IMG/VR virus record: IMGVR_UViG_3300023179_000030
Span: 1 to 64,000 of that record
Length of the DNA stretch: 64,000 bases
Strand: one strand, 5' to 3'
DNA from: a virus
Positions 15,966 to 50,008 of this stretch are shown here, in pieces (positions within the stretch are counted from its first letter, which is position 1; every line of letters begins with the position of its first letter). The translations under genes and the position numbers were made by a program. The notes below the pieces were generated by a model. That model was not told the DNA's origin and made no database searches. It was given only the letters and a program-made list of their open reading frames with translations.

Positions 15966-16381
15966 AAGAAAGTTGTGGCGCGCTAATTTATTGTACTGCC
16001 ACTCAAAGATATTTGTTTTTACTACGTAATGGTGGTAAATTCGCCAACACCTGGGGTCTAGCAGGTGGTAAATTGGAAAACTCTGAATCAATGCTGGTTG
16101 GCCTTGTTCGAGAAATTCGTGAAGAGCTCGGTGGGGAGATTTCGGGTGCTAAAGTATTGCCAATTGAAAAATATACCAGTGACAATGGCAAGTTTGCTTA
16201 TCACACCTTTTTAATAAAAATCGAAGAAGAATTTGTGCCACAGCTCAATCATGAGCACAAGGGATTTTGTTGGGTAGGCCTTGATGATCATCCAACTCCC
16301 TTGCACCCTGGTGTTTATCGAACACTAAAGCAGAAATCTACTAGAAGTAAAATAAAAAGTCAAGAATCAATCAAAGATTAA
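15947..16381 (+). CDS. NUDIX hydrolase
   Basis: Nudix box GGKLENSESMLVGLVREIREELG, plus LNHEH..W and LHPG. Confidence 0.9.
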   Translation: MDFGNIKESCGALIYCTATQRYLFLLRNGGKFANTWGLAGGKLENSESMLVGLVREIREELGGEISGAKVLPIEKYTSDNGKFAYHTFLIKIEEEFVPQLNHEHKGFCWVGLDDHPTPLHPGVYRTLKQKSTRSKIKSQESIKD

Positions 16382-16955
16382 AAACTATACTGGTTCTAGG
16401 GGTTTTGCTTTGGTTGGGAGGTACTTCATGGTACATCCATGCGGGCCATATCAATAACAATCCAGGACAGGGTTCGTAATCAACATGTGGCATGCAATAC
16501 CAATTATTTGGGTCTTTAATCATATACATATAATCAAAAAAATCCTTGAAGGGTTGATTTGGATAGAACCTAATTTTACTTGACCCTGGAGGAGTTTTTA
16601 GATAATATATACCACTTAGTGTACATTGACTATGCAGATGTTTGGGATGGTTACTGCCTTCCAAAAAGCTGTTGGCAAAAAAGTATGGCTTCCAGGGAAT
16701 CCTACTGGTGTCATAGCCTTGCTGATCTAAAAACCCCACAGCCTTTTTTTTAACAAAATCTATAAAAGGACTGAATTCAGGATCCTCTGTCAATGATCTA
16801 GTGCCATAAGTGGTTTCACCATTGTAGTAAAACTGCGTGTTTACTTGTTTGTTTGGCACATTAAAAATCTTATCCAGCAGTAGATTCATGGGGTCAATCC
16901 ACTCTGGGTGGTTATCTCGACCCACCGTGGTTGGAAACCAGTTATCTAAATGCAT
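16371..16955 (-). CDS. 2OG-Fe(II) oxygenase-like protein (TIGR02466-type)
   Basis: HPKHLH...LSGIYYL, LLIWPAWMYHEV and RTSIVFN. Confidence 0.8.
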   Translation of the reverse strand: MHLDNWFPTTVGRDNHPEWIDPMNLLLDKIFNVPNKQVNTQFYYNGETTYGTRSLTEDPEFSPFIDFVKKKAVGFLDQQGYDTSRIPWKPYFFANSFLEGSNHPKHLHSQCTLSGIYYLKTPPGSSKIRFYPNQPFKDFFDYMYMIKDPNNWYCMPHVDYEPCPGLLLIWPAWMYHEVPPNQSKTPRTSIVFNL

Positions 16956-16956
16956 G

Positions 16957-17478
16957 TTATTTACTGAAAAATAGCTGTATACTCAAGCGAGGATGTTCCG
17001 CCAATGGGGTAACCATGGTGGTTGCATGCCAAACTGGAGGCTTAAACCAAACCATATAATTACGCATAGGATAAACCCAACGTTGCCCAACATCTGGGTC
17101 ATCACAAATAAAAAATCCACCCCAATTCCAATTCCAAGTCTCATTGATATAAATTGTGCTGCTTAGACGCTCAACCGTTTCAGATGCATCGTGATGAAAA
17201 TTGATTTGACTTCCAGGTGGCCAAATATGTAAAAAACAATTTAAATTATTATAATCTGCAAATACCGGATCCACTGTTTTATATTTTTCCAAAAAATATT
17301 CTTTATATTCTTCCAGCGGTAACACAAATACTGGGGCATATGACCCGCTATCTAGCCCTTTACCCCATCGACCCATGTTGTTTATCTCAAATACAGGTTT
17401 CCCGCGTGAGCTCTCATATTTTGCATTTATGTTGTCAAATGTTTCTTTGTCTAAAAAATCAGGAACTATATGAATCAT
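16957..17478 (-). CDS. Prolyl-hydroxylase-like 2OG-Fe(II) oxygenase
   Basis: HxD (FHHDA), STIYINETW...WGG, distal His (VWH) and the RLSIQ 2OG-binding motif. Confidence 0.82.
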   Translation of the reverse strand: MIHIVPDFLDKETFDNINAKYESSRGKPVFEINNMGRWGKGLDSGSYAPVFVLPLEEYKEYFLEKYKTVDPVFADYNNLNCFLHIWPPGSQINFHHDASETVERLSSTIYINETWNWNWGGFFICDDPDVGQRWVYPMRNYMVWFKPPVWHATTMVTPLAEHPRLSIQLFFSK

Positions 17479-17489
17479 TGTTATCTTTC

Positions 17490-18041
17490 TTAATATTGAG
17501 TGGTAAGGAAAAACAATTGAAATAGCCTACCTGATTCCAAGTCATCTCCAAAATAATCTAAACTTGTATGAAATAGATCACTGCGATACAACACTAATCT
17601 ATTATATCTATTGCCAATTACATCGAATAAGTCCCATTTGGTCATATCCTGAGATTCGTAACTTTCCAATTCACTCTGAATTCTAGCTCCAGTGCGTTTA
17701 TGTCTAAACAACCCTGTGCCGCTGGTATGTGGCGCATTTGGTGTTAGATAACAAACCCCAGCCCAAGTGTTATAGTGATCTGTGTGTATCCAACTTCGGT
17801 CTTTGGCTGTTGCAATTTCAAAACTACCGGTGAGCCCATCGCCCTCATTCCAATTTGTTACTTCGCCAGCGGCATTCCAAAGAATAGTCTGAATAGTATC
17901 ACGCATATCACTGTTTAGAAAACTCACAGTGCGTGATCCAGGGAAATTGCCCCTGACTTTAAATTCTTGCTGCATTGCAAATGCTCTAACACTGTCTGGG
18001 TTGCTATAAAAATCGTCGGTGATAATTACATTAGTTCTCAA
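17490..18041 (-). CDS. 2OG-Fe(II) oxygenase-like protein (DUF6445-like)
   Basis: Probable TTG start at 18041 after SD AAGGA. Motifs DDFY.NPD.VR, FPG.RT, WIHTD, YNRLVLYR..LFH and RLFQLFF. Confidence 0.78.
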   Translation of the reverse strand: MRTNVIITDDFYSNPDSVRAFAMQQEFKVRGNFPGSRTVSFLNSDMRDTIQTILWNAAGEVTNWNEGDGLTGSFEIATAKDRSWIHTDHYNTWAGVCYLTPNAPHTSGTGLFRHKRTGARIQSELESYESQDMTKWDLFDVIGNRYNRLVLYRSDLFHTSLDYFGDDLESGRLFQLFFLTTQY

Positions 18042-18061
18042 TTTATTTCCTTTATTATACT

Positions 18062-18068
18062 TACTTAT
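18062..18068 (-). promoter_or_regulatory. Late promoter variant ATAAGTA for the three-oxygenase operon
   Basis: Intergenic, 20 nt upstream of the TTG start. Confidence 0.5.
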
Positions 18069-18107
18069 GTTAATGCGAGCTATTGCTTGCAAAACTTGTG
18101 GGATAAT

Positions 18108-18911
18108 TTATTGTGCTAGATTAACGAACAGATGTTTTTCTATTTCTTCCTCTAACCTTTGATAGATTGATTTTTGCCAGTAGGGTTTAGATAATTCATA
18201 GTTCATCAATACATACTCATTGAGTTCATCATATTTTGCTGGTGTTAAGGTGTTCATTATATGTTCAAATTTTTCAATTGAATTAAATTCTAAAATACCT
18301 CGAGTATCAAAATATTTACCTATATTAGTACAACCAAAATATATAGGTACGGTTTTGGTCTTAAAACAATCCAGTAACTTTTCAGTGAACATGTTATCCA
18401 TGGCTTGATTTTCGCAGGCAATGTGAAATTTAGCGTTTACAAAAAAGGGATTTTTAGATTCAACCCTGGGTGGACTCCTATGCCACAAAAAGTCAAAATC
18501 TCCAATTTTGGTTAACTTATCAACTCTACGCATTATCATAAATCTCATACGATGTTCATGAGTCAAAATTTTACTACTCATCAAATAAGTTATTTGATTA
18601 GTTTTTTTGATCTCTAAATCATCTACCCAAGCTCCAACTGGACAAAATTCTCGTGCCTGCGGATATTGTAATAATCTATCATCATATGCCAATATTAAAT
18701 CAAAATTCTCATGAGCGTTTGCCACCATACCTGCGAAGTCAATATACAATTTCGGAGGCTCGCATTGCACTAAAACATTGTAATCTGCATTGGGATCGTG
18801 CCTCACATCGTCATAGCTGACATTAATTTTAACTGGAAACTTTTTTGTGAAGTTATATTTTGTACTGCCACTGTAACCCGGCATATATCCAATTTCTGAG
18901 ATTTCAAACAT
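18108..18911 (-). CDS. GT10-like glycosyltransferase (alpha-1,3-fucosyltransferase family)
   Basis: KFHIACEN...FTEKLLDCF...TVPIYFG matches the GT10 GDP-sugar-binding motif. Confidence 0.8.
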   Translation of the reverse strand: MFEISEIGYMPGYSGSTKYNFTKKFPVKINVSYDDVRHDPNADYNVLVQCEPPKLYIDFAGMVANAHENFDLILAYDDRLLQYPQAREFCPVGAWVDDLEIKKTNQITYLMSSKILTHEHRMRFMIMRRVDKLTKIGDFDFLWHRSPPRVESKNPFFVNAKFHIACENQAMDNMFTEKLLDCFKTKTVPIYFGCTNIGKYFDTRGILEFNSIEKFEHIMNTLTPAKYDELNEYVLMNYELSKPYWQKSIYQRLEEEIEKHLFVNLAQ

Positions 18912-19767
18912 TCTTGGAAACCCTAATAATTTTATTCATTGAATTACTTAATACTATAGCCATATTGCTGAGATTACTTTCTCGACAAATTAGCGCACCA
19001 ACACGGCTTAAACTCATCACTTCGGCCATGGCTTCTTGCCAAAATCTCTTTTGATAAAACCAATCATATTCTGCCAAGCAGTCAAAAAAACTGGAGAATG
19101 TTTCAGTTTTATATCTTAAAAAGTTGTCGTGATAAATGATTAAATCACCAAAATACGCCTGTAGTTTATATATCGATTCATGATTATCTGAAGCTACAAA
19201 AATATTGGAATATTTACCAGTTTCAAATTCATGAGCAATACAACGTTTATACTCATCCAAGCTAATATTTTGGTATTGATCACCATGCAACATATTCATT
19301 GATGTCAGTCTAACATGCACCCCCAATGTTGTATTTGTAATTTGACTTGTCACAGGCAATGAATTAAGCTTGTTGTAAACTTCTGGTTGGAATTTTAATT
19401 TAGTTATAACTTTTTGATATTTTGAAAAATTAGGGCTTAACTCTATTTTATTTTGTTTTGTATAAGTAGTGCCTTGTTTCAAAAATCCTCGATGTTCGTA
19501 GCTGGCATCCTTTTTTTGCACTAAAATATAATCTAAGATATGTGCGTAGGGATCTTCAATGCCATATTGCTGCATTCTGTTTACGTGGTCTTCACAGAAT
19601 TTCCAAGCTTGATTACTGAACTCATCATTGGTTTCTGTCACTGGGACGAAACCGCTTAGTTCCAAATAAACATTGTCAAAATCAATTTCCGACAAAGGTA
19701 ATATCCCAAATTGCAGCAATCTACTAAAGATACCGCCCCCTGGAACTATATAGATAAAATTTTTCAT
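18904..19767 (-). CDS. GT23/NodZ-like GDP-sugar (fucosyl)transferase
   Basis: GGGIFS, LGVHVRLT, IFVASDN and EVMSLSR...ICRESNLS correspond to the three alpha-1,2/1,6-fucosyltransferase motifs. Confidence 0.75.
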   Translation of the reverse strand: MKNFIYIVPGGGIFSRLLQFGILPLSEIDFDNVYLELSGFVPVTETNDEFSNQAWKFCEDHVNRMQQYGIEDPYAHILDYILVQKKDASYEHRGFLKQGTTYTKQNKIELSPNFSKYQKVITKLKFQPEVYNKLNSLPVTSQITNTTLGVHVRLTSMNMLHGDQYQNISLDEYKRCIAHEFETGKYSNIFVASDNHESIYKLQAYFGDLIIYHDNFLRYKTETFSSFFDCLAEYDWFYQKRFWQEAMAEVMSLSRVGALICRESNLSNMAIVLSNSMNKIIRVSKNV

Positions 19768-20588
19768 ATTATAATATGTTGATTTTGCGATACTACCTTT
19801 TTAATCACATTGTGAAAATATTCTGATGCATTGTCATCAATAGGAAATTCAAAATTAAAAGCATTTTTGCCACTGTGATCATATGGGGTTCGCATAGTGG
19901 GCATATAGCAGCGGTCCATATCAAGGGTCTCTACAGGATCAAAACCCAACTTGTTTAAAATTTGATTACCCATATGCAATATCAATTCATATGATGGGTG
20001 ACTCACATCATTGAATAGCTTTTTAGTTTTATAATTCTGCTCTATAAAGTCAACGGCTTTTACATCAGTCCCTCGCTCTTTGATTCTAAGTATATTTTGA
20101 TTTCGCCTAAATCTCTCTGCATAGTTAAAGTCGATTTGCCCATGATCATAGGCCGACAAAATGTCTGATTCAGTCCACCCATCCACTAACAACTTTTTAA
20201 TAATCGAAGAATTTTTAATTAGCTCAGTATCCACCAATCTAAAATTGTCGCTGATATTTGGGGCAGATGTCACCACCATAGGCCAAAAACTAAAATTCCA
20301 AAGATAAGGAATACTGATCGCCTGGGAGCCGGGTTTCATATGAGTTTTCAATGTGTCTGTGGCGTTTTCTCCATAGGTTTCGGCCAATGGCTGATAAATG
20401 AAAAGATCAGCATTTTTCAATTTGACAAAATAATCCGAATAAGTTAAGAACGACCGTTGAGTCCTTATTAATTCGTAATTATGTATATGGTCAACAATTA
20501 TATATTGTTCAGAAAATTGACGGGAAGCATAAAGAACATCATAGATCATCCTACCCTGACATGTTGCATAAATTAAAGCTGTTTTCAT
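19764..20588 (-). CDS. WcbI-like polysaccharide biosynthesis protein
   Basis: ATCQG, ADLFIYQP, DFIEQNYKTKKLF..VSHPS pattern. Confidence 0.65.
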   Translation of the reverse strand: MKTALIYATCQGRMIYDVLYASRQFSEQYIIVDHIHNYELIRTQRSFLTYSDYFVKLKNADLFIYQPLAETYGENATDTLKTHMKPGSQAISIPYLWNFSFWPMVVTSAPNISDNFRLVDTELIKNSSIIKKLLVDGWTESDILSAYDHGQIDFNYAERFRRNQNILRIKERGTDVKAVDFIEQNYKTKKLFNDVSHPSYELILHMGNQILNKLGFDPVETLDMDRCYMPTMRTPYDHSGKNAFNFEFPIDDNASEYFHNVIKKVVSQNQHIII

Positions 20589-20598
20589 TGGTTCATTG

Positions 20599-21564
20599 TT
20601 ATTTGTCTTGCCAATATTTAATCATTTCATCCAACATGCTGTGAAATGTATATTTGGGACTCCATCCCAACTGACTTCTAATTTCACTGCTGTCACCCTT
20701 TAGATATTTTAACTCTTCGGGGCGTAAAAACTTTTCATTTTGTACTACATAATTTCTATAATCAAGCCCCAAAGCGTTGAATGTGTATTCACAAAGATCG
20801 CGAACTGAATGTGATTCCCCGGTGGCAACTACCCAATCACGTGGTGTTTCGTGATTGACAATCATGTGCATAGCGCGCACATAATCATAACTATGACCCC
20901 AGTCCCTACAGCTATCTAAATTCCCCAATTCCAACTTGTCCAATAAACCTTTTTTAATATCTACAGCAGCTTTGACAACTTTGTTTGTTACAAAGTTTGT
21001 ACCGCGGCGTGGGCTTTCGTGATTAAATAATATCCCATTTGAGGCATGTAACTTATATGCATCCCTATAATGTCTTGTTAGATTAAATCCCATGACTTTA
21101 CTGCATCCGTAGGGACTCACTGGCGTCATGGGTGTTGAAAGTCGTTGTACCCCATCTGGATCTATACTATTACCAAACATTTCACTGCTGCTGGCTTGAT
21201 AAAACTTAGCTTGTGGGCAAAATTGTCGATATGCTTCAAGCATAGTCAACACTCCCAGACTATTGGTTTTAATAGTAAAGGCCGGCATATCAAAACTAAT
21301 TCGCACATGGCTCATTGCTGCAAGATTATATATCTCGTCGGGCTTTACATCATTAACGATCTTAGCAATACTCCATTCGTCAGTCAAATCCCCATAAATT
21401 CTAGTTATTTGATCATTGATATGCATCAATCTAGAACTTTGATTTTCTGCTACACTATGTCTACGAACTATACCGTAGACATCATAGCCCAAGTCTAATA
21501 GATATTCGCTAAGATAACTACCATCTTGACCGGTAATACCAGTTATTAATGCTCGCTTTTTCAT
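20599..21564 (-). CDS. gmd: GDP-mannose 4,6-dehydratase
   Basis: ALITGITGQDGSYL, YNLAAMSHV.ISF, QASSSEMFG, SPYGCSK, GILFNHESPRRG and RDWGH. Confidence 0.97.
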   Translation of the reverse strand: MKKRALITGITGQDGSYLSEYLLDLGYDVYGIVRRHSVAENQSSRLMHINDQITRIYGDLTDEWSIAKIVNDVKPDEIYNLAAMSHVRISFDMPAFTIKTNSLGVLTMLEAYRQFCPQAKFYQASSSEMFGNSIDPDGVQRLSTPMTPVSPYGCSKVMGFNLTRHYRDAYKLHASNGILFNHESPRRGTNFVTNKVVKAAVDIKKGLLDKLELGNLDSCRDWGHSYDYVRAMHMIVNHETPRDWVVATGESHSVRDLCEYTFNALGLDYRNYVVQNEKFLRPEELKYLKGDSSEIRSQLGWSPKYTFHSMLDEMIKYWQDK

Positions 21565-22256
21565 TTTGACCTTTTAAATATTGTTTTCTGTGATAAATCT
21601 GAATAATGCAAATTAGAACCACAATCTTCCGTATAGTCTGCTACTTGATCCATTAAAAGTATACCACGCGCAGCATCTTCTGGTGTCATATAATAATGCC
21701 AGCCCATGATCTCATAGTCATCCTCCCACTGTGGAATAGATAAATCCCTGCCATCGTAAGTTGCTTTTTTAAGCCAACGATATGCCTCAGCATCGTCAGT
21801 GAGAATCATACCCCCTCTTCCAATGGGAATTTGTTTTTTAAGTTGAAAACTGCATACGTGCAATCCACCAGTGTACATACCACGACGCCAACGAGTAGCT
21901 GCATCCCATATTGGAAATGGCTTTAATTGATATCTTCCCGTCCATTCCAGATCTTCAAATTCCACTCGGCATCCTGCATGTACTATTTGTTGAGCTGCAC
22001 TGACATAAGTATGTTTGGGTATGGTTACTGTTCCAATGGCGTTTAGATATTTTAAACTCAAAAACATGCCGTGGCTACAACAATCCACCGCTACCCCATA
22101 CTTAGATCCTGCAAACTCTGCTACTTTTTTCTCAAAAATATCAACTATATCTCTGGCATCAGTCCAGTTATAGCCCTGTTTTTTGACTTGCTCTAGCTCT
22201 GGCCTTTGAAATTCTTTGGGTAATTGCCCGTTGGGCCAACTTGAAAATTTAGTCAT
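21561..22256 (-). CDS. Compact DegT/DnrJ-family PLP-dependent sugar aminotransferase (perosamine-synthase-like)
   Basis: FEKKVAEF.G.KYGVAV, WDAA, SFQLKK...GRGGMILTDD (catalytic Lys kept) and G..YYMT. Only 231 aa. Confidence 0.8.
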   Translation of the reverse strand: MTKFSSWPNGQLPKEFQRPELEQVKKQGYNWTDARDIVDIFEKKVAEFAGSKYGVAVDCCSHGMFLSLKYLNAIGTVTIPKHTYVSAAQQIVHAGCRVEFEDLEWTGRYQLKPFPIWDAATRWRRGMYTGGLHVCSFQLKKQIPIGRGGMILTDDAEAYRWLKKATYDGRDLSIPQWEDDYEIMGWHYYMTPEDAARGILLMDQVADYTEDCGSNLHYSDLSQKTIFKRSK

Positions 22257-22780
22257 TGATATTTGTATCCCATTTTTTCTGCATATTCGTAGGCTTTGTC
22301 TTGATTTCGCAGCCTAATAGGTCTAGCGGGGTTCCCTACGTAAATAGTCCAGGGTTCGGTGCTTTGTTTTAATAAGCTATTGGCCCCCAATACACTACCC
22401 TCTGCCAGTGTGACCCCAGGTAAAACCACAGCATTTGCTAATACTCCACTAAACCGTTTAAGTGTAATAGTCCCCAAAATCTGTGTATCCTTAAACTCTT
22501 CGGGTATCAGTGGGCCAATTAACCCATCACCCATAAAAGTCTCACTGCCGCAGACATATTTTGATCCCACACTTAAAAAACAAAAGTCTTCAACGCATAG
22601 ACTTGAATGTTTACCGCCAATAACTGCTACGTGCGGGCTTACATGCACATAGTCACCTATTATTAATTTAGTTGAACAATAAAACCCATAATCTATAGCT
22701 ACGTGATTACCGAGTTGGCATAAATCGGGTCTAGTTATCTCAGAATTAGCATGTACTCTGACATCTATTCCCTGTATCAT
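22253..22780 (-). CDS. Hexapeptide-repeat (left-handed beta-helix) acyltransferase
   Basis: IGDYVHV, VVLPGVTLAEGSVLGANS and YVGNPAR. Confidence 0.88.
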   Translation of the reverse strand: MIQGIDVRVHANSEITRPDLCQLGNHVAIDYGFYCSTKLIIGDYVHVSPHVAVIGGKHSSLCVEDFCFLSVGSKYVCGSETFMGDGLIGPLIPEEFKDTQILGTITLKRFSGVLANAVVLPGVTLAEGSVLGANSLLKQSTEPWTIYVGNPARPIRLRNQDKAYEYAEKMGYKYQ

Positions 22781-24359: not shown

Positions 24360-24665
24360 TTAGACTGCAAGTTTGGCTATCACAGCAGGCAATAAATCAG
24401 CATTTGACCAGTGGTCGCGTATTGCATCATATTCATCTCCTTGCCATACTAATAAACCACGCCTAGAAGTGCCAAAAACTTCAGTTGAACCATCAGGGCG
24501 CTCTCTGGTTATAAATGGCCCAAGCTCAACTTCAACTTGAACTCGTTTTTCAAAAATCTGTTCACGTATTTCTAATATTTTAAATTCTTTAGATACTACA
24601 CGCTCACTGAGAACAATTTCATCTGTGGTTGGATGTGTATCTGTTATATTCGCTGCGGCTGGCAT
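24360..24665 (-). CDS. Hypothetical protein
   Basis: 101 aa with a strong SD (AGGAG) and its own late box. Confidence 0.75.
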   Translation of the reverse strand: MPAAANITDTHPTTDEIVLSERVVSKEFKILEIREQIFEKRVQVEVELGPFITRERPDGSTEVFGTSRRGLLVWQGDEYDAIRDHWSNADLLPAVIAKLAV

Positions 24666-24692: not shown

Positions 24693-24699
24693 TATTTAT
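24693..24699 (-). promoter_or_regulatory. Late promoter box ATAAATA
   Basis: Overlaps the protease stop codon, upstream of 24360..24665. Confidence 0.55.
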
Positions 24700-40516: not shown

Positions 40517-43500
40517 TTAAAAGAATAATAGCTCTCGGAAATGTTCTTGTTGCTGTTGTCGATTTACCCATAGATATTTTAAACCATCAACAGTTACAAA
40601 GATTTCCATCTTATTGCCAATACCTGCGGTACCAGCCACATAGGGGAATATCCCTGCACCGTGAACCCAATTTGTATTGACGTCAAGGTAATATAGCCTT
40701 TGGGTTACGTCTTTTGTAAAGTATATCCTGTCACCACCATCATAAGCAAACATAGACCCAGAACCCAGTGTTTCAGTAAAAGGTATTAGATATGTTAAAA
40801 CAACACGATCAGTGGTGAGGTCAAGTCTGTCAATACCCACAGAGGCACCGCAACGAGGCATCCAGAGATATCTACCCTTAGTTGCAGCTGGTGTATTAGC
40901 TGACGCCCAAACTAGTTCATGTCCGGCCCCTTTAACTGGAATAGATAGTAATGAGTAAACTGCAACGTTGGCCAATGGGGCGGTGGCCAAACCAAAGGTA
41001 AGTGTGCCGGTTGTTGGGGCAACAGCAGTAATAACCAACTCCTGATTCAGACCAGTAGCACCACTTTGTACTTTGATCCTTCTACCAACCAATGATTGGT
41101 TCCAGGCTGCACAAGTAATTGTACCAGACACTGCACCTGAGTGAGCAACGTCAACGGTAAGTGTTGTTGTGCCTGCACCAGAAATAATTTTAGCACCGGT
41201 ATTAATACCTGTACCAGTTACATACCATCCGTTTACATTGCCTGGAGCCGCAGCACTTAAGGTAATTGTGGTACCTTGTGCAGAGCCTGTACCGGTTGCA
41301 GTAGCCCAAAATGCACTGGCATCCACCAATGTTGTTGTAGAGCCACCTGTTGCAACACCAGCATTATATGTAGTGGTTGTTTGGTCCATTGCTGCACCTA
41401 TTAACTCTTTTGCTGTTATTACATATCTGCTAATAGCACCTGTTGGTGCTGTACCTAGAGCAGCGATGAAACCCATAGTACCACCACCAACACCAGAACT
41501 TGTAGCTTGCATTAGCTGAGTGGCTTGTAAACCTGTTGTAGCCACAGGAGCTGCTGTGGCTGATACAATTTGACGACCTGCTACGTTTGGTGGGTAGAAA
41601 GTAATATTACCTGATACGATACCAGTACATGCATTAGATAGTGTAATTGTTGCTGTACCAGCACCACTTGTGACGGTTGTACCAATCGCAATACCTGTAC
41701 CCACTGCATACCAACCGGTTATCAATGAAGAAGTGTTGGCCGTCATTGTTACTGTTGCAACACCAGCGCCGCCGCCAGATGAGAACGCACTTGTAATTGC
41801 GGTGTTAGGACCCCAAGGCGAGAATGTAATAACACCGCTTGGAACTGCTGCACCTGTTGATAGTGTCACTGTTGTTGTACCGGCACCTGCTGTAACTATT
41901 GCACCTGGAGTTATGTTTGTACCAGATGCATACCAACCATTGATATTAGTGGGAGTGGCTCGAGCAAAAGTGATAGAGGTATTTGTGCCTGAGGATGCAT
42001 TATCTCTAAAATCCTTACTTGCGTCTGAAATGTTAGACGTAGATAGAGCTGTCAGATACGCATAAGTACCAGTACCTGCCGCATTTGGAGTGTAAGTGAA
42101 AGTTGTGGTCGAAGGTACGGTTACAATTTGTACTAAACCTGTGATGTTATACTGATCTGCGGCTGCTGATGTTACACCACGTATACTTACGTATTGACCA
42201 ACTTTAAAATTATGTGCTTGTGTAGTCGTAGCTGTGATTGTTGTGGTTCCAGCAAGAGATGTTATCGAAAACGGCATTTGCTCATATATAGTATGGTTTG
42301 CGTCAGAAAGCAATGCACATGCAATACTAGCTATACCTGTTTCATACATTCTGCCATGAGTTAACATATCAATGTTACCAGCATGGTGCATGAAAACTTC
42401 GGATGAACCACCCCAACCAATATACATGGTGTCACTGGCACCTTGGATTACATATACTGATGTTGTATCTGGTAAAATATGCCAAGGTGAATATACCGTT
42501 AGCGCTGTAGTTGTATTTGATAATATCTGTCGAACTTGTCCTGCACCAGTACCAAATAAAATACGCACAGCATAATTAGTCCAGCGATTTGCAGTCCAAG
42601 ATTTAGTGGTGTCATTAATCGTGTTATATAAGTTAGAACCACTGGATTTACCACCATCGTAACCTATTATCTGATATCTAGATGTTGTATCAGGTGCTGT
42701 AGTGATAGCAGAGAATGTGAGTGTATTAGCTGTGTTACTTGTAATAACTACAATCTGCCCACGACCGGTTCCACTGTAAATATACAACTCATAGCCAGCC
42801 CACTGGTTAACTGCCCAGTTTTGAGTACTATCAGCTAAAGTAGTTGTAGTACCAGCAGTTGCAATGCTTTGAACCCAGAGAGAAGAGTTTTCAGTCATTC
42901 GTTCAATACTTATCTCTGTAGGAGCGGCAACAACCATGTTAGTTGCAGCAGCTTTAGAATACCACGTGTCATGCAACACATCATAGTATTGCATGGTATA
43001 GAATGGTGTAGCGGCTGCGCCTGATACTAACCAAATTGCCCCACTTTGAATGACAAATCTACTGGTATTATCAGGTGTTACATCCCAGGCAGTATCAATA
43101 GTGCAAACTGAAGACTCAATTTGATAAACAGTACCGGCCGCTGGCGCAGTCATAGTGTTATTAGCAAAAGGATCATTTTGGTAAAAGTTAATATCGCCAG
43201 TAGTTAACACTGTGGCCGAATTATATAATATCTTACGAACTTGGTTAGCACCAGTACCGAATAGTGTACGTACAACATATCCAACCCAACCATTGACGTT
43301 GGCTGTGACACCAACATAACCCGAAGTCCAAGTCTTGGCGGTATCAGTTAATGATGTTGTTGAACCTGCTGTTGCACCACCGAAATCTGCTACAACAGGA
43401 TCACTAACTGCTGTAATAACACGTTCTTGGCCAGCACCACGACCACTTACAATACGAACTTTATAACCAACTGCTGAACCGCCAAATGGGAGTCCAGTTG

Positions 43501-43816
43501 TAAATGTTGTTGTCGTAGCAGAAATTACACGATTATAGTAGCCTTGTGCGCCCGAAAAACGCATACTTGATGCTGTTAGGGGTGCCTGAGGAGGAGATGC
43601 CAATTGTTCATAAGTATCAGCAATGGTGTCATATCTCCAAAAGTTAGTGGCGTTTAGAAGGTAATAGATGTAACGTCCAGAGTTTTCATTAAACTGTGAG
43701 GTGTCTGCTACACATGAGCACGATAAACCAGCAGAGGGAACTACCGGAGAAAATCGTAGCCATTCCCATGTAGGTAAGTCTACTTGTTTTCTTAATTGAT
43801 TTGCTGATAAAGCCAT
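40517..43816 (-). CDS. Large virion protein: beta-propeller-like blades interrupted by repeated small beta domains
   Basis: Blade-like motifs (FWRYDTIADTYEQLA, YYDVLHDTW, YYLDVNTNW), ~4 copies of T.GTTTTL.D....W...G.GAGQ.R.I..NT, and 3 copies of GWY..GTGI..G..V.SGAGT.T.T. Confidence 0.7.
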   Translation of the reverse strand: MALSANQLRKQVDLPTWEWLRFSPVVPSAGLSCSCVADTSQFNENSGRYIYYLLNATNFWRYDTIADTYEQLASPPQAPLTASSMRFSGAQGYYNRVISATTTTFTTGLPFGGSAVGYKVRIVSGRGAGQERVITAVSDPVVADFGGATAGSTTSLTDTAKTWTSGYVGVTANVNGWVGYVVRTLFGTGANQVRKILYNSATVLTTGDINFYQNDPFANNTMTAPAAGTVYQIESSVCTIDTAWDVTPDNTSRFVIQSGAIWLVSGAAATPFYTMQYYDVLHDTWYSKAAATNMVVAAPTEISIERMTENSSLWVQSIATAGTTTTLADSTQNWAVNQWAGYELYIYSGTGRGQIVVITSNTANTLTFSAITTAPDTTSRYQIIGYDGGKSSGSNLYNTINDTTKSWTANRWTNYAVRILFGTGAGQVRQILSNTTTALTVYSPWHILPDTTSVYVIQGASDTMYIGWGGSSEVFMHHAGNIDMLTHGRMYETGIASIACALLSDANHTIYEQMPFSITSLAGTTTITATTTQAHNFKVGQYVSIRGVTSAAADQYNITGLVQIVTVPSTTTFTYTPNAAGTGTYAYLTALSTSNISDASKDFRDNASSGTNTSITFARATPTNINGWYASGTNITPGAIVTAGAGTTTVTLSTGAAVPSGVITFSPWGPNTAITSAFSSGGGAGVATVTMTANTSSLITGWYAVGTGIAIGTTVTSGAGTATITLSNACTGIVSGNITFYPPNVAGRQIVSATAAPVATTGLQATQLMQATSSGVGGGTMGFIAALGTAPTGAISRYVITAKELIGAAMDQTTTTYNAGVATGGSTTTLVDASAFWATATGTGSAQGTTITLSAAAPGNVNGWYVTGTGINTGAKIISGAGTTTLTVDVAHSGAVSGTITCAAWNQSLVGRRIKVQSGATGLNQELVITAVAPTTGTLTFGLATAPLANVAVYSLLSIPVKGAGHELVWASANTPAATKGRYLWMPRCGASVGIDRLDLTTDRVVLTYLIPFTETLGSGSMFAYDGGDRIYFTKDVTQRLYYLDVNTNWVHGAGIFPYVAGTAGIGNKMEIFVTVDGLKYLWVNRQQQQEHFRELLFF

Positions 43817-44316: not shown

Positions 44317-46236
44317 CTAAAATATATTCCAATTACTACCATTGGATATTAAACCCATCATTGAGTTTTGCTCTGTCATTATCATATTTGCATAACCATC
44401 TATAGTTTCTGCTCCTGTACCCACTACTGTTACCTGCCCCGTTCCTATATTCTTAATTTCAAAGTTTATACCTGTATTTATCGAAGCTGTAGGCAATGTA
44501 AGAGTTAATGTACCATTTGCAAAAATTACTGCATCATTAGAGGTTATTGTGCTGTTTGACGTAACGGATCGTAATGGGGAACTAACAATTATATTACCAT
44601 AGATAGTTCTATTTACTAATAAATTGCCTGACAAAGATAAATTGCTGGTAACCGCATTAAAATATAAAGCAGTAGATGACACATTTGCAGTTTGATCTGA
44701 ACCCACAGCCCCAACCATTACTGGATACAGTGTAGTGGTAGTAGTATTGTTGTTGGCAAAGATTAAATTAGTGCTACCGGCTGGTCCCTGTGGACCTTGT
44801 GGTCCTTGTGGTCCGCCTGCTGGCCCTTGTGGACCCTGTGCACCAGTATTACCTATTGGCCCAATTGGGCCCTGGGGGCCAGTTGGACCCTGTGGGCCTT
44901 GTGGTCCTTGTACACCAATTCCTTGTGGGCCTTGGCTTCCCTGCGGACCAGTTGGACCCTGTGGGCCTTGTGGTCCTGTGTTGCCAATTGGCCCAATTGG
45001 CCCTTGTGGACCTTGTGGACCACGTGGGCCCTGTGGGCCTTGTGGCCCTTGTACACCAATTCCTTGTGGGCCTTGGCTTCCCTGCGGACCAGTTGGACCC
45101 TGTGGGCCTTGTGGCCCTTGTACACCAATTCCTTGTGGACCTTGAACACCAGTTGGACCTTGAACACCAGTTGGGCCCTGTGGACCCTGTGGTCCTACCC
45201 CTTGTGGGCCCTGAACACCAGTTGGACCTTGAACACCAGTTGGGCCCTGTGGGCCTTGTGGTCCTACCCCTTGTGGGCCCTGAACACCTTGTGGGCCCTG
45301 TGGACCTTGTGGACCACCGGCTGGGCCTTGTGGGCCTTGTGGCCCGACCCCTGCTAGTAATGTTTGTACCTCTATTGTTGACAGTGGTGGCGGTGCTTCT
45401 GAAAATTGTATATTAGAGTTATTTAATGTGTATGATGTTCTAAGTTGAGCCACGCCATCAATAACCACAGTGGTATAATTAATGTTGGGTGGTCTAGTAG
45501 ATAAAGTGAATACGGATTGGCTACCTGTACCAATAAAGTCATCAACAAATATGGCTAGATTTCCAACATTTCCGCCAGTTGTTGGGCCCCAGCTTAGGTT
45601 GCCCATGCCATCTGTAATTATTGTATACCCGTAGGCACCACCACTGAGATGTAAATTGGCCACTGAACCCAATGAACTTATACCGCTAACTGTTAACGAA
45701 TTAATCGAACTTAAATTACCAGAATAATTAGGCAAATAACTAGTTAAATATCCAGGTAAGTAAGCCTCAACGTTGGCATTACTGTAGTTACCCGATACCA
45801 GAGCCCCGTTTACATATAATTTATCGTCTATTGTTGTAATTAGTGACCCAGCTAATATAAGATTTGACCCTATGTAAGCTGAGGACCATTGATTGTTTAC
45901 TGTACCTATAGTGTAGGTATTATTGGGCGAGGGTGTTAAATTACCCCCAATTGCCCCAAATACTGAAACACCATTGGGATAAAAGAATCCACTGGCAACA
46001 CTATTTCCCAGAGTTTCTATATTCCCGTAGGCAAATAAATTGCCAGTACGTATATTACCAGTTGTAACAAATGTATTGGCAGTTATGGTATTGCCAATTA
46101 AATCGGTGCCACCATTGGACCCAAAAACTGTGTAAAGTTCTGTGAAATTGTCATTTACTTTTGTAAACGCGGCTCGAACTGTGTCACCCGTTTGAGTGTC
46201 TGGACCATTACCTAAATTAATAATTTGCTGGGTCAT
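44317..46236 (-). CDS. Collagen-like fibre with a T4 gp9/gp10-type N-terminal attachment motif
   Basis: [31 protein letters not shown] at the N-terminus, ~190 aa of Gly-X-Y, and a C-terminal TLTLP...IKNIG...TIDG...GSNWNIF domain. Confidence 0.85.
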
Positions 46237-46262: not shown

Positions 46263-46269
46263 TATTTAG
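46263..46269 (-). promoter_or_regulatory. Late promoter box CTAAATA
   Basis: 26 nt upstream of ATG 46236. Confidence 0.65.
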
Positions 46270-46285
46270 CTCAGACAATGAGACA

Positions 46286-46308
46286 GCTCTAGTGTTTTTC
46301 ACTAGAGC
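46286..46308. terminator. Hairpin after the 1226-aa fibre gene (possible terminator or processing site)
   Basis: gctctagtg-ttttt-cactagagc, a 9-bp perfect stem with only a weak U tract. Confidence 0.45.
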
Positions 46309-46327
46309 GTCAAATCTTAGATTTGGG

Positions 46328-49300
46328 TTAACCACTTAGTCTTGTTTTCAATTTATCAATTTGATTTTGCAAATCCAAAATTTGTTTTTGCAAATCCAGC
46401 ACTTTATCCTCTAAAGATAGCTCTTTGGTGTCTAATTCCTGAATTGCTCGGACAATAACCGGTAACAACTTACCTGGAGTAGCTTCCAATCGTTCTGGAT
46501 TATCTTCCAGAACTAATGATAACCAATCTTTGATACCATATCGCTCAGTGACTTCCAGCAATTCTTGTGCTATAAAACCAGCTTCTTTGATTCCCGCTTT
46601 GGCACCATCACGCATCGCCCAAGTAAATTTAACAGGACGCAGTTCACGTATAAATTCTAATCCCAGTGGAATTGGTTCAATATCTTTCTTATCACGTGAG
46701 TCCGATAAAAAGGTAATAGAAGTTACTTGTGCACGTAATACTGTTATGTTAGTGTCACCTAAATTAATCGAATTACTTGAATTAGTTGCTGCTGGGTATG
46801 AGCCAGCGCCTAAAAAGGTATTATTGATGCCAGATACCAGGCTATTACCTGCAGTAAAACCTATAGCAGTATTACGGCATCCGATCGTATTACAAGACAA
46901 AGCCGCCAGCCCCAAAGCGGTATTACCCCAACCATATGTGTTTCCACACAATGCACATTTACCCATTGCTGTATTGTAATACCCTATGGTATTGGTTGAT
47001 AGGGCGTTAGTACCTAGCGCCGCATTTCCGTAGCCATTTGTGTTCGCAGCCAAGGCTAGATGCCCAACAGCAATATTGTTATGGCCAATTGAATTCCAGT
47101 TTAATGAGTTATGCCCTATAGCAACATTGCAGGCACCTGTTGTATTCGTGTATAGGGCATTGCCCCCAACAGCAATATTGTAAGTACCAATGGTGCTACT
47201 ATATAATGAAAACCTCCCCACTGCCACATTATCTGTACCCGTAGTATTTGCACCCAATGCATATGACCCAACAGCGGTATTATTATAACCAATTGAATTA
47301 GCACATAGGGCACTATCACCCACAGCTAAGTTAGAGGTTCCGGTTGTATTACACTTCAAAGCGGCATAACCTAGAGCGGTGTTAGTAAAACCACTGAGGT
47401 TACATCGCAATGCATTAACCCCAATGGCGGTGTTACTGCTACCAGTGGTATTGGCAAGTAACGCACATGATCCAATAGCGACATTATAGTTACCGTAAAT
47501 ATTGTTGAATGAAGCAAATGCACCCACTGCCGTATTACCATAGCCCGTAGTATTGTAGTAAAGAGCACTAGCACCTATAGCAGTGTTCATGGATATAGTA
47601 GTGTTGCAATACAATGCCTGAAATCCTATCGCAGTGTTATTACTGCCGATACTATTGTTATATAGAGAGCTAGATCCAAGTGCGGTATTGCAGTTTCCCC
47701 TAGAATTATAATACGATGCATAGCTACCAATAGCAATATTATAGCAACCTGTAGTATTAACTGTTAACGCACTTATACCAACTGCAACATTGTGTAATCC
47801 TGTGGTGGTTGCACATAGGGCGCTATCCCCAATAGCAATATTATAAGGTTTTTGTATATTAGCTAAAGAATTATTACCTATTGCAATATTATAAAATCCA
47901 CCGGCACTTTTACACATGGCACTAAAGCCAATAGCTATATTAGATACTCCTGTTACACTGCAAGCTAGAGCTAGATGACCAATGGCAATATTTTGATAGC
48001 CTGTGGTGTTGTCTTTCATTGCACTGAAACCTAGGGCAATATTGTTGTTTCCAAAGCTGTTGTTATATAATGCTGATGGGCCTATAGCAGTATTATAATA
48101 GCCAGTGGTATTGACATACAATGCCGATTGTCCCAATGCAATATTATTATACCCTTGTGTGTTATTATAAAGTGTGGAATTACCAATAGCAACATTTTGA
48201 TAGCCTGAGCCGTTTAGAGTCAACGCTCGCTCACCAACAGCAGTATTGTTATTTGCCAAATTGCATCGCAGTGCACATATACCCAAAGCTGTGTTACCGT
48301 AGCCACCAGAGTTCCTGAACAATGCACTTTGCCCTACTGCCGTATTTTCACGACCAGTGGTATTGCAATACATTGCACCGTCACCTAAAGCGGTATTATC
48401 ATAGCCAATGGTATTTAGAACTAATGCACAAGTACCTACCGCAGTATTTCTACAACCAGTGGTATTTGAGTATAATGCACTAGCACCAATTGCTATGTTG
48501 TTATTACCTGTGCTATTACGTAATGCTTGATAGCCCAATGCTGCCGACCCAGTTAGTGCAGTAGAAGTACAACCATACACACCACCAATATTAATTGGGG
48601 TCGCCAATGACGTAAGTCCGGTTGGGCCCTGTGGTCCCGTATTGCCAATTGGACCAATTGGACCGGTTGGGCCTTGTGGCCCTGTATTGCCAATTGGACC
48701 AATTGGGCCAATTGGCCCTTGCGGACCTTGTGGGCCAATTGGACCAATTGGCCCTTGTGGACCTTGTGGGCCACGTGGGCCCTGTGGGCCACCTGGGTCA
48801 CCCTGTGGACCTTGGGGGCCTGCATTACCTTGTATACCCTGTGGCCCCGTTGGACCTTGTGGGCCCTGTGGACCTTGTGGGCCACCGGCTGGGCCTTGTG
48901 GACCTTGATTTCCTATGGGCCCAATTGGACCAATTGGACCTTGTGGTCCCTGTGGTCCCGTTGGACCTTGTGGGCCCTGTGGACCTTGGCTACCACCACC
49001 ACCGCTTGGACCCTGTGGGCCTTGTACACCAGTTGGACCTTGTGGGCCAATTGGACCAATTGGTCCTTGCGGCCCTTGTGGGCCCTGTGGACCTTGTGAT
49101 CCTGTGCCACCACCTGGCCCAATGGGCCCCTGTGGCCCTTGTGGGCCAATATTACCTATTGGACCAATTGGTCCTTGCGGCCCTTGTGGGCCCTGTGGAC
49201 CTTGTGATCCTGTGCCACCACCTGGTCCAGTTGGGCCTTGCACACCTTGGTCACCTTGTGGGCCCTGTGGACCCCTGGGTCCTTGTGGGCCCTGTGGACC

Positions 49301-50008
49301 TTGTGATCCGGTTGGTCCTTGTATACCAGAATCGCCAGGTGACCCTTGTGGGCCCTGTGGACCCCTGGGTCCTTGTGGGCCCTGTGGGCCTTGTGATCCG
49401 GTTGGTCCTTGCGGGCCAACTCCTTGCGGCCCTTGTACACCAGTTGGACCTTGAGGTCCTTGTGTGCCAGCCCCTGATGGGCCTTGCGGCCCTTGTGGAC
49501 CGGTTGGACCTTGGGGACCTTGAGGCCCTTGTGGTCCTGATCCCTGAGGTCCTTGTGGTCCTTGTGTACCTGTTGTACCTTGTGGACCTTGTGGACCTTG
49601 TGGTCCTACCCCTTGCGGACCTTGTGGGCCGGTGGGTCCTTGGGGCCCTTGTGGCCCTTGAGTTCCTGTACCCTGTGGTCCTTGTGGACCGGTTGGTCCT
49701 TGTGGGCCTTGTGGACCTATTCCTTGTGGTCCTTGGGGCCCTTGTGGACCGGTTGGACCTTGGGGACCTTGAGGCCCACCAGCTGGTCCTTGTGGTCCTT
49801 GTGGCCCTTGTACACCAGTTGGACTTGTCACCCATCGTCGAGAACCATCGATATTTCCCATCAATACGTAATTATTTGCTGCTGGTACTCCTAAATCAGG
49901 TTCGGCATCATTTAATCTAAGCCAAGTATATCTATCTGATGGTACACTGGCACTGGGTGTTTTGGGTACTTTACCGCTGAGTAAATTATTACTAATACGT
50001 TTAGTCAT
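46328..50008 (-). CDS. Second collagen-like + beta-solenoid fibre (1226 aa) with S74 autochaperone
   Basis: ~400 aa of Gly-X-Y, N.A.G..AL..NTTG repeats, and SDSRDKKDI...GFIAQE. Confidence 0.9.

Follow-up and report, generated by a model that had tools for sequence, protein, structure and literature searches.

A probable late gene cluster for soluble glycan assembly and tailoring next to the fibre genes of an uncultured marine jumbo phage, with the phage's own fibres as possible acceptors

The 64,000-nt stretch of DNA analysed here (the window) covers part of a jumbo myovirus whose full record is 126 kb long. This giant marine phage has not been cultured and belongs with other uncultured jumbo myoviruses of aquatic origin, and its capsid protein is nearest to those of GAP32, CBB, PA5oct, and Vibrio phage 2.275.O. 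An array of fibre genes lies on the minus strand. Fibre F1 (46328-50008, 1226 aa) matches Pfam Collagen (1.5e-38) and Peptidase_S74 (2.7e-11) and consists of collagen runs (387 aa of Gly-X-Y), then 17-residue N-T-T-G-type repeats, and then a C-terminal Peptidase_S74 chaperone domain; it carries 11 N[ST][ST]G motifs. Fibre F2 (44317-46236, 639 aa) matches Pfam Collagen, has collagen runs that sum to 159 aa, and has a weakly gp9/10-like N-terminus. The third protein of the array (40517-43816, 1099 aa) is Thr/Ala-rich by composition and has no match in Pfam or PHROG. The giant fibre (32790-40214, 2474 aa) matches Pfam Collagen and Peptidase_S74, with collagen within residues 164-804, a Cys-rich 17-residue N-T-T-G array at about 805-2340 (autocorrelation 0.41 at lag 17, 67 Cys, and 40 N[ST][ST]G motifs), and the Peptidase_S74 domain at 2362-2413.

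The spacer between the giant fibre ORF and GT1a, the first glycosyltransferase gene, is 28 bp long (32762-32789), and from there 21 consecutive ORFs, all co-directional, run along the minus strand from 32761 down to 16371, as an earlier note on this DNA had claimed and as the ORF list and coordinates bear out. Sub-operon 1 (24699-32761), assigned with Pfam matches, spacer sequence, and the gene order of relatives L004-L013, codes in order for a GT4 enzyme (GT1a), a methyltransferase, a GT-A enzyme, sulfotransferase 1, an FkbM methyltransferase, a GT9-like enzyme, a NodU-type carbamoyltransferase, sulfotransferase 2, and a papain-like peptidase. It is followed by the gene for p101 (24360-24665), a conserved phage-only protein of 101 aa. 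Sub-operon 3a (18108-24238; assigned with Pfam, NCBIfam, and ESM Atlas), which varies between relatives, codes for a second GT4 enzyme (GT1b), a WbuC cupin, a hexapeptide acetyltransferase, a short DegT aminotransferase, Gmd, WcbI, the NodZ/FUT8-like p287, and a GT10-like enzyme. Three genes of the 2OG-Fe(II) oxygenase type by Pfam (DUF6445, a P4H-like 2OG-FeII_Oxy_3, and 2OG-FeII_Oxy_5) complete the cluster at 16371-18092. It thus holds six glycosyltransferases, a Gmd/aminotransferase/acetyltransferase route, two sulfotransferases, a carbamoyltransferase, two methyltransferases, and three 2OG oxygenases, and four of its genes, those for the papain-like peptidase, p101, the WbuC-family cupin, and WcbI, were absent from the earlier list.

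The enzymes were called by Pfam with its curated cut-offs. Above the cut-off were Glycos_transf_1 twice (GT1a, 31859-32761, and GT1b, 23180-24238), Sulfotransfer_3 twice, FkbM methyltransferase, Carbam_trans_N with Carbam_trans_C, GDP_Man_Dehyd, DegT, Hexapep, WcbI, Glyco_transf_10, DUF6445, 2OG-FeII_Oxy_3, 2OG-FeII_Oxy_5, and Peptidase_C1, while Methyltransf_23 (31221-31865) scored 24.6 bits, below its cut-off of 27. The two weak glycosyltransferase calls are backed by profile or fold matches. The GT-A enzyme (30530-31261) scores 18.2 bits, below the cut-off of 23.3, but a profile of 25 sequences matches the viral GT-A protein A197 (E 4.8e-6), and its D88/D90 pair is nearly invariant. The GT9-like enzyme (28163-29092) scores 22.1 bits against a cut-off of 22, and its structure model (pLDDT 84) matches GT9 structures with E values of 1e-10 to 1e-7, which confirms the GT9 fold as predicted by the model. 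The protein p287 (18904-19767), previously called GT23-like, has no sequence match in Pfam, NCBIfam, or PDB; only its ESM Atlas structure neighbours, of the NodZ/FUT8/O-FucT type (TM 0.65-0.73), suggest this putative assignment. The P4H-like protein matches the prolyl 4-hydroxylase-domain chains 9ei6 (E 5.9e-4) and 9blq, and HxD motifs can be read in its translation and in that of DUF6445.

A hydropathy scan of the cluster enzymes found no convincing membrane segment, in keeping with the claim that they are soluble; three 19-residue windows barely exceed the threshold of 1.6 (1.62-1.64), one of them within the hexapeptide acetyltransferase, one within sulfotransferase 1, and one at the C-terminus of the papain-like protein. 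In the whole 126-kb record the only ORFs with multiple transmembrane segments are four plus-strand shadow frames within fibre genes and a 226-aa ORF at 96518-97198. The Wzx, WbaP, Wzy_C, WecA/MraY, and ABC-2 families were each found in neither of two records, the present one (G000) and a 99%-complete relative (G001), while control genomes were positive. The absence of a flippase, a polymerase, and a lipid-carrier transferase, noted earlier, therefore extends to both records.

The late-type box motif [A/C]TAAATA is placed close to genes: 9 of its 20 minus-strand sites lie at most 60 nt 5' of a start codon, where 5% would be expected (binomial 2e-7). One box, CTAAATA (40232-40238, minus strand), is 17 nt 5' of the giant fibre start codon and another is upstream of fibre F2 (46263-46269). 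GT1a has no such box of its own, and the 28-bp spacer before it has neither a late box nor a terminator; sub-operon 1 appears to be transcribed from the late fibre promoter. Late-type boxes had been reported before two of the three sub-operons, and these are the box before p101 (24693-24699) and the one 118 nt before GT1b (24357). A terminator-like hairpin belongs to p101 (24335-24316). Because a terminator-like hairpin and a sigma-70-like promoter precede the second half of the cluster, its expression may not be confined to the late phase.

The cluster was compared with G001 and with 81 related loci (L004-L084). Its first half is kept behind fibre homologues whereas the second half is variable: sub-operon 3a is largely missing from L004 and L006-L012, and the second half is replaced in relatives. 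In all nine loci L005-L013, one of the two ORFs immediately upstream of GT1a codes for a homologue of the giant fibre, and in six of these loci that ORF abuts GT1a with spacers of -4 to 26 bp. The gene order is also kept in L004 and in G001, where the cluster sits between collagen fibres and neck genes. The order of seven core genes is conserved at 49-73% identity, which favours a single pathway. GT-A accompanies GT1a in 67 of 80 loci. Upstream genes are visible in 47 dereplicated clusters. In 37 of them the GT4 and GT-A core has PHROG families of virion, fibre, or tail proteins nearby; 5 have ribonucleotide reductase nearby and 10 lack any recognised family of these three kinds, two groups that overlap and that weigh against a fibre acceptor. 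The 'virion' families were partly chosen for being frequent neighbours, and the counts are descriptive and not independent tests because relatives share synteny by descent. The linkage between cluster and fibre genes that had been proposed as a test is thus positive within the clade. The collagen part of the earlier claim fared worse. In the three collagen fibres GPT occurs 13, 7, and 28 times and GNT 0, 2, and 17 times, so the triplets are present, and NxS/T motifs exceed expectation in the giant fibre (85, with about 53 expected), but GPQ predominates (57, 24, and 65), and of the 27 relatives whose upstream DNA spans 8 kb or more only 4 have a collagen ORF there. What recurs beside the cluster is the part of the fibre built of 17-residue N-T-T-G repeats rather than collagen.

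The best explanation of the module is that it is a late-expressed and wholly cytoplasmic system of glycan assembly and tailoring that forms part of the tail-fibre module. From the enzyme families we infer the donor sugars and the order of steps as follows. Gmd would convert host GDP-mannose to GDP-4-keto-6-deoxymannose, from which the short DegT aminotransferase and the hexapeptide acetyltransferase, possibly helped by the WbuC cupin and WcbI, would make an acetamido-6-deoxy sugar. This sugar would be transferred by the GT10-like and NodZ/FUT8-like enzymes, both of families that take GDP-sugar donors. The conserved core (two GT4, GT-A, and GT9-like enzymes, the last probably with a host heptose donor) would build the chain, the carbamoyltransferase, two PAPS-type sulfotransferases, and two methyltransferases would decorate it, and the 2OG oxygenases may hydroxylate the protein acceptor or a sugar.

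Our best, still tentative, reading is that the phage's own fibre proteins receive this glycan, either before they assemble or while they do so. Gene position is what points to the fibres as the most likely acceptor, and the likeliest sites would be exposed Asn, Thr, and Ser of the 17-residue N-T-T-G array in F1 and the giant fibre and not the collagen triplets specifically. This reading is favoured because GT1a is coupled to a late-promoted fibre gene, synteny is conserved, and there is no export route; because a protein-modifying enzyme, an acyltransferase of the HlyC family (Pfam), lies two ORFs downstream of GT1a in 14 loci; and because the solved relatives include the virus glycosyltransferase A197 and the TibC-type GT9 fold. 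The earlier proposal of fibre decoration is therefore retained in its soluble enzymes, missing export, late coupling, and synteny, and loses its emphasis on collagen.

Remodelling of the host envelope is possible although rather unlikely. The soluble enzymes would then make or change a unit of LPS O-chain, core, or capsule on its lipid carrier, and the host's initiating transferase, flippase, and ligase would bring this unit to the surface, and the altered surface of the infected cell would block co-infection or stop progeny from adsorbing to debris. Soluble glycosyltransferases normally use lipid-linked acceptors, which a host could export. The GT9-like enzyme, WcbI, the WbuC cupin, the Gmd/aminotransferase route, and GT10 are typical of LPS or capsule loci and speak against a fibre acceptor, WaaC and WaaF match the GT9-like fold as well as TibC does, and the second sub-operon has its sigma-70-like promoter. 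Yet sub-operon 1 is apparently driven by the late fibre promoter, membrane and periplasmic components number zero even in the 99%-complete relative, and the core genes have long been part of the virion modules of relatives (34-64% identity). Moreover, a search of 185,579 species genomes with the GT9-like profile found one relative, on a 36% GC MAG contig behind a 1257-aa ORF, so at this level of similarity the family is nearly absent from bacterial genomes and was not recently acquired from host LPS loci. Carbamoyltransferase homologues of 40-47% identity do occur in cyanophage clusters, and envelope modification is the published default for the glycosyltransferase-rich tail-fibre 'host recognition clusters' of pelagi- and cyanomyophages (PMC7029224) and for the 'cell wall synthesis and modification' genes of large cyanomyoviruses (PMC12801897).

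It is improbable that the acceptor is another phage product (p101, a capsid or sheath decoration protein, or a small molecule) or that the region is a landing pad of mixed functions with no single pathway, even though marine myophage tail-fibre regions are described as plastic, hypervariable islands that gather accessory genes (PMC7029224). The replaced second half and the papain-like gene, with no homologue in any of the 81 loci, would suit such an island, but the conserved order of the core genes points to one pathway. As for p101, homologues stand at the cluster end in 12 of 80 loci (10 of the 53 left after dereplication) and it has its own late box and terminator-like hairpin, but it has no family match in Pfam, NCBIfam, or PHROG and no recognisable acceptor features.

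Hypermodification of DNA or nucleotides, with the enzymes decorating modified phage bases, is very improbable because the cluster lies in a late virion module away from replication genes and we know of no DNA modification that involves sulfotransferases or NodU-type carbamoyltransferases. Phage glycosyltransferases are classically DNA-modifying (cited in PMC12619734 and PMC12801897), and a ThyA-family gene (synthase or hydroxymethylase) is present in G000 and G001. In the cultured phages phiM12 and DLP_6, distant GT1a homologues (about 33% identity) have early or nucleotide-metabolism genes and not fibre genes as neighbours, which speaks for DNA modification and against fibre decoration; in DLP_6 the homologue is close to a methyltransferase and a GT-A gene.

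To our knowledge no acceptor has been established for A197 of the Sulfolobus turreted icosahedral virus. This protein (PDB 2c0n), likewise virus-encoded, is the closest relative of the conserved GT-A among solved structures, but the virus is archaeal and the match spans only part of the protein. TibC modifies a beta-helical adhesin in the cytoplasm and is characterised by an iron finger and a dodecamer. The TibC/AAH autotransporter heptosyltransferases of the GT9 type (PDB 4rap) match the GT9-like fold (E about 3e-8; identity 10-12%) and resemble it in being soluble and encoded closely downstream of a gene for a repeat-rich protein of the beta-solenoid type, but the LPS heptosyltransferases WaaC and WaaF match the fold equally well. 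We know of no sulfation or carbamoylation described for fibril glycosylation in the Megavirinae. Their clusters, as described in PMC10117803, also encode pathways to rare bacterial-like amino-deoxy sugars, and glycosyltransferases acting on virion fibrils, but these are eukaryotic giant viruses with other enzymes. Virion glycoproteins are described for the jumbo phage XacN1 (PMC5852040) and virion glycosylation by phage glycosyltransferases for mycobacteriophages (Freeman et al. 2023, as cited in PMC12619734 and PMC12801897), and in both, as in our reading, soluble phage enzymes are proposed or shown to glycosylate virion proteins. The mycobacteriophages differ, by these descriptions, in targeting capsid and tail-tube C-termini, in their few enzymes (compared by description only), in their Actinobacteria hosts, and in that no sulfation or carbamoylation is known for them.

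Glycosyltransferase clusters adjacent to fibre genes have already been published. The host recognition clusters of marine pelagi- and cyanomyophages likewise have glycosyltransferase and sugar-nucleotide genes amid tail-fibre genes in a hypervariable region, and are read there as modifying the host O-chain (Zaragoza-Solas et al. 2020, PMC7029224). Their NodU-type carbamoyltransferases share 44-47% identity with the present one. In P-SSM2 and S-SSM7, large tail-fibre genes are followed, for the most part on one strand, by genes for the carbamoyltransferase, for heptose, and for 2OG oxygenases. Unlike these phages, the present one is a jumbo myovirus and not a member of the Kyanoviridae, and its cluster has a different set of glycosyltransferases, with two sulfotransferases and the Gmd route instead of heptose-synthesis genes.

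The 64 kb of the window open a 126,241-bp IMG/VR record (G000) whose completeness is put at 36% by CheckV. PHROG families for a tail sheath, a tube-like protein, neck, portal and major head protein were matched in the window, and its major capsid protein shares 64-68% identity with the capsid proteins of Vibrio phage 2.275.O (349 kb), Sinorhizobium phage Phosso, GAP32, CBB, and PA5oct. Because of these virion matches and capsid relatives, the window is, as judged from sequence, part of a jumbo myovirus genome predicted to total roughly 350 kb. A near-identity DNA search of the GenBank phages gave two short matches for the cluster and none for the structural end of the window. Two ORFs in the head module, 53435-54940 and 61143-62909 on the minus strand (501 and 588 aa), have matches in phrog_3339 and phrog_559, which are PHROG families of homing/HNH endonucleases, and lie on either side of the capsid and portal genes.

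Four genes of the fibre array are on the minus strand, namely, F1 (46328-50008), F2 (44317-46236), the gene of a 1099-aa protein at 40517-43816, and the 2474-aa giant fibre (32790-40214). Downstream of this run there are 21 consecutive minus-strand ORFs, from 32761 to 16371, and a spacer of 28 bp separates the giant-fibre gene from the first of the enzyme genes. As in a host recognition cluster, glycosyltransferase and sugar-nucleotide genes are embedded among tail-fibre genes. The enzyme calls were based on Pfam, NCBIfam, a PDB profile search, one good structure model, and the ESM Atlas, and they support the list in the earlier note: two GT4 enzymes (GT1a, 31859-32761, and GT1b, 23180-24238), a GT-A enzyme (30530-31261), a GT9-like enzyme (28163-29092), a GT10-like enzyme, Gmd, a short DegT aminotransferase, a hexapeptide acetyltransferase, two Sulfotransfer_3 proteins, a NodU-type carbamoyltransferase, two methyltransferases of which one scores under the Pfam cut-off, and three 2OG-oxygenase-type proteins, all on the minus strand. 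Four genes were absent from that list, namely, a papain-like peptidase, p101 (24360-24665), which is 101 aa long and phage-only, a WbuC cupin, and WcbI. The NodZ/FUT8/O-FucT-like protein p287 (18904-19767) was assigned from the ESM Atlas; its single-sequence AlphaFold model had a mean pLDDT of 33 and was unused, and thus the GT23-like call is Atlas-based. The GT-A enzyme has a weak Pfam match, and a profile of 25 sequences matched the viral GT-A protein A197 with an E value of 4.8e-6; its D88/D90 pair is nearly invariant. A PDB sequence search gave nothing useful for GT-A as a single sequence, for p287, or for the GT9-like and GT1a profiles.

A hydropathy scan of the cluster enzymes revealed no convincing membrane segment. 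Three single 19-residue windows were barely above the threshold, one of them being the C-terminal end of the papain-like protein. This papain-family (Peptidase_C1) protein, with its hydrophobic C-terminal end, is encoded at 24699-25550 on the minus strand within the glycan cluster, and since all 81 related loci examined (L004-L084) lacked a homologue of its gene it looks like an insertion specific to the window. At the other end of the cluster a Nudix-like gene of 144 aa (15947-16381, plus strand) converges on the last oxygenase gene with an overlap of 11 bp, and in relatives it is kept beside the sheath-stabiliser gene with or without the variable half of the cluster.

The exact T4 late box, TATAAATA, was found at three sites, which is below chance, and [A/C]TAAATA was adopted instead. 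On the minus strand nine of the 20 [A/C]TAAATA sites are at most 60 nt upstream of a start codon as against 5% expected (binomial, 2e-7). Such boxes stand ahead of the tube-like, neck and portal genes, fibre F2 (box at 46263), the giant fibre (40232), and p101 (24693), and a further box at 24357 is 118 nt before GT1b. No box and no hairpin were found in the 28 bp that precede GT1a, and the most likely explanation on these motifs is that sub-operon 1 (24699-32761) would be driven by the late promoter of the giant fibre. Downstream of p101 there is a terminator-like hairpin and then, just before GT1b, a sigma-70-like TTTACT-16-TATAAT sequence; therefore, the second half of the cluster may be controlled differently. 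The glycosyltransferase genes are placed with the structural genes by the spacer, the fibre late box and synteny, and their co-expression is deduced from the transcription signals, which are motif matches and not measured transcripts.

The synteny comes from relatives of GT1a. A query with a single protein found one related locus for GT1a and none for sulfotransferase 1, whereas a query with an alignment of 22 GT1a homologues gave 589 confirmed IMG/VR matches, of which the best 80 were taken. In all, 1105 GT1a homologues were found at E <= 1e-10, and many of them are 55-66% identical and on contigs of up to 393 kb. In all nine loci L005-L013 (55-64% identity) a homologue of the giant fibre lies one or two ORFs upstream of GT1a, and in six of them it directly abuts GT1a with spacers of -4 to 26 bp. 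What is kept in these nine loci is the order GT1a-(MT)-GT-A-sulfotransferase-x-GT9-carbamoyltransferase-sulfotransferase-p101, which L004 also has, while the Gmd-to-oxygenase half is mostly absent or replaced. In the relative G001 (353 kb, 99% complete) the layout starts with portal and capsid, then four small ORFs, three collagen-rich fibres, and two unknown ORFs, followed by GT9, carbamoyltransferase, sulfotransferase, GT1a, two GT-A genes, and p101, and then by Nudix, sheath stabiliser, neck, and sheath. By clustering of ORF families GT-A accompanies GT1a in 67 of the best 80 of 589 loci. Dereplication of these 80 loci at 90% GT1a identity left 53 clusters, 47 of them with at least two upstream ORFs visible. 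Within five ORFs upstream or 12 downstream, PHROG virion-structural, fibre or tail families were present in 37 of these 47 clusters; a homologue of F1 or of the giant fibre was upstream in eight, and ribonucleotide reductase was nearby in five. No recognised virion, fibre or tail family was found in the other 10, one of which (L007) has a fibre homologue by BLAST. The cluster is a real, conserved, and modular system for glycan assembly and tailoring that is tied to fibre genes.

Collagen runs are present in three fibres, and GPQ triplets dominate in them (57, 24, and 65) while GPT (13, 7, and 28) and GNT (0, 2, and 17) are minorities. Pro occupies the X position of these runs and Gln, then Thr, then Ile the Y position, with Lys outside the eight commonest Y residues; a P4H-like oxygenase is encoded in the cluster. 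The excess of NxS/T motifs is due to a 17-residue repeat of the type N-T-T-G-x-x-N-F-A-x-G-x-x-A-L-x-x, which is arrayed over residues 805-2340, the larger part of the giant fibre, with an identity autocorrelation of 0.41 at lag 17, and in the tail of F1. Within residues 805-2340 the motif N[ST][ST]G occurs 40 times, a density about 100-fold over background. Since all 67 cysteines of the giant fibre are inside this array and none is elsewhere, the array is suggested to be a disulfide- or metal-stabilised solenoid. At the C-terminal end, F1 and the giant fibre each have a Peptidase_S74 chaperone domain. Between the gene of the 1099-aa protein and the giant fibre, a short way upstream of the latter's late box, there is an ORF of about 55 aa (40338-40504, minus strand) that looks coiled-coil-like by eye and may encode a fibre assembly factor.

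Collagen was rejected as the conserved partner of the enzymes because a collagen ORF is upstream in just four of the 27 loci whose upstream DNA extends over 8 kb or more. An N-T-T-G fibre is upstream in seven of 14 loci with the extended enzyme set and in one of 45 core-only loci (Fisher p 7e-5), an association given as description, since loci related by descent do not amount to an independent test. The co-occurrence of the enzyme set with fibre genes that the earlier note asked for is seen, in this descriptive sense, with the N-T-T-G fibre rather than with collagen. With GPQ outnumbering GPT as well, the analogy to GPT collagens drawn there has to give way, and the prime candidate acceptor is the N-T-T-G solenoid repeat in place of collagen/GPT.

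The reading of the cluster with the best support is that the phage glycosylates its own fibres, and we give it a little short of an even chance. It is favored because of the coupling to a late operon, the conserved placement in the virion module, the lack of membrane and export parts, and the phage-restricted enzymes. Wzx/Wzy- or ABC-dependent O-antigen and capsule loci have an initiating transferase, a flippase or exporter, and a polymerase or ligase, whereas G000 and G001 are without them: with control genomes positive, searches of these two records (36% and 99% complete) found no initiating phosphoglycosyl transferase (WbaP PF02397, WecA/MraY PF00953) and no Wzx PF01943, ABC-2 PF01061, or Wzy_C PF04932. 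No real multi-TM ORF was found in or near the cluster. When the GT9-like profile was run by exact peptide patterns, which distant cellular relatives would escape, against 185,579 species genomes it found one relative, on a 25.7-kb MAG contig of 36% GC with a GT9-plus-carbamoyltransferase pair behind a 1257-aa ORF. At this similarity level the GT9-like family is essentially phage-borne.

We tentatively propose, as possible rather than probable, that aquatic jumbo phages with their own complete cytoplasmic pathway put a sulfated, carbamoylated, and methylated acetamido-6-deoxy-sugar heteroglycan on Cys-rich beta-solenoid/collagen-like fibres, that is, a phage glycocalyx. The conserved core of GT4, GT-A, GT9-like enzyme, carbamoyltransferase, and sulfotransferases would lay down the scaffold, and the fast-changing second operon would alter the outer sugars and so give glycan-level variation in host range or anti-adsorption. 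In a bolder version the P4H-like oxygenases would first hydroxylate the fibre, making the attachment sites. A search for APS kinase gave marginal matches of 21.6 and 16.7 bits, which are to homologous P-loop proteins on the plus strand of G000 (C1:98108-98962) and G001 (C1:288554-289051). The G001 gene, directly after the glycan cluster, may serve PAPS supply for the sulfotransferases; because the matches are marginal a phage PAPS supply is not claimed.

The serious rival is remodelling of the host envelope, which we consider rather unlikely. The enzymes belong to families typical of LPS and capsule loci, and the structure of the GT9-like enzyme fits this rival as well as it fits a protein acceptor. 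Its GT-B fold was confirmed (model pLDDT of 84, Pfam score at the cut-off), and Foldseek matched 3tov, WaaC, WaaF, and TibC with E values of 1e-10 to 1e-7. Since the LPS enzymes WaaC and WaaF match equally well, the TibC match was rejected as a pointer to a protein acceptor; the likeness to TibC/AAH protein heptosyltransferases is at the fold level and no better than that to the LPS enzymes. That the product goes to another phage acceptor, or that the functions are mixed, is less likely still and improbable in our estimate. GT1a homologues are known in 19 records of cultured phages at 29-34% identity, and those of phiM12 and DLP_6 are among early and nucleotide-metabolism genes, which argues against a simple fibre reading; the one in DLP_6 is near a methyltransferase and GT-A. 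In pelagiphage HTVC027P the homologue is among tail and structural genes. DNA modification is very improbable. Both G000 (99636-100529 of the record) and G001 have a ThyA-family gene, which may be a synthase or a hydroxymethylase, but the cluster of the window sits in the virion module apart from replication genes.

Fibre-adjacent clusters of this kind are already in print. The carbamoyltransferase is 40-47% identical to homologues in P-SSM2, S-SSM7, S-CAM1, and others, and the sulfotransferase is 23-36% identical to proteins in eight phage records, so that the cyanomyovirus host recognition clusters share enzyme homology with that of the window. In P-SSM2 and S-SSM7, carbamoyltransferase, heptose, and 2OG oxygenase genes are downstream of large tail-fibre genes. 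The tail-fibre host recognition clusters of pelagimyophages and cyanomyophages are described as having many glycosyltransferase and LPS-type genes, and modification of the host O-chain against co-infection is the explanation favored there (Zaragoza-Solas et al. 2020, PMC7029224). A cyanomyovirus paper of 2025 counts 22 'cell wall synthesis and modification' genes and discusses roles at the host surface or on DNA (PMC12801897). In the sections of these two papers that deal with such clusters the product is treated as host O-chain or DNA without chemistry (PMC7029224, PMC12801897). In the jumbo phage XacN1, at least two virion glycoproteins are described, with phage glycosyltransferases suggested as their makers (PMC5852040).

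Marine and freshwater myophages widely carry islands rich in glycosyltransferase genes next to their tail fibres. If the product is on the fibres, then adsorption and host range, the stability of the particles, and how grazers or defences recognise them would all depend on a layer of glycan that sequence-based host-range models miss. If true, sulfated and carbamoylated protein glycans from the bacterial cytoplasm would be new chemistry. In the limited collection of literature searched no report of sulfation or carbamoylation of phage virion glycans was found; mycobacteriophage virion glycosylation has reportedly been described by Freeman et al. in 2023. The window contributes a clean operon junction between the fibre gene and the first glycosyltransferase gene, a modular picture of a fixed core and a variable outer set, and a specific candidate acceptor repeat in the 17-residue N-T-T-G unit, and its value is in a question made testable rather than in a discovery.

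Two observations concern relatives of the cluster proteins. The ESM Atlas neighbours of p287 include a giant-virus cluster of proteins of about 523 aa, 93% of which have 2OG-FeII_Oxy_3 (P4H-type) and 26% a FUT8-like domain (FUT8_N_cat); these could possibly be a hydroxylase-glycosyltransferase fusion that echoes the gene adjacency in the window. When longer homologues of the P4H-like protein of the window were sought for such a fusion, there was one match of 340 aa with the oxygenase domain alone. A gene for an acyltransferase of the Pfam HlyC family is two ORFs past GT1a in 14 of the 80 loci taken as the best of 589. This gene (146 aa; L032-L066, e.g. L046:3432-3872) follows the GT4 and GT-A pair within a virion-structural module. 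The HlyC family acylates protein lysines, and its presence in these more distant relatives may be a sign that a virion protein is lipidated or acylated.
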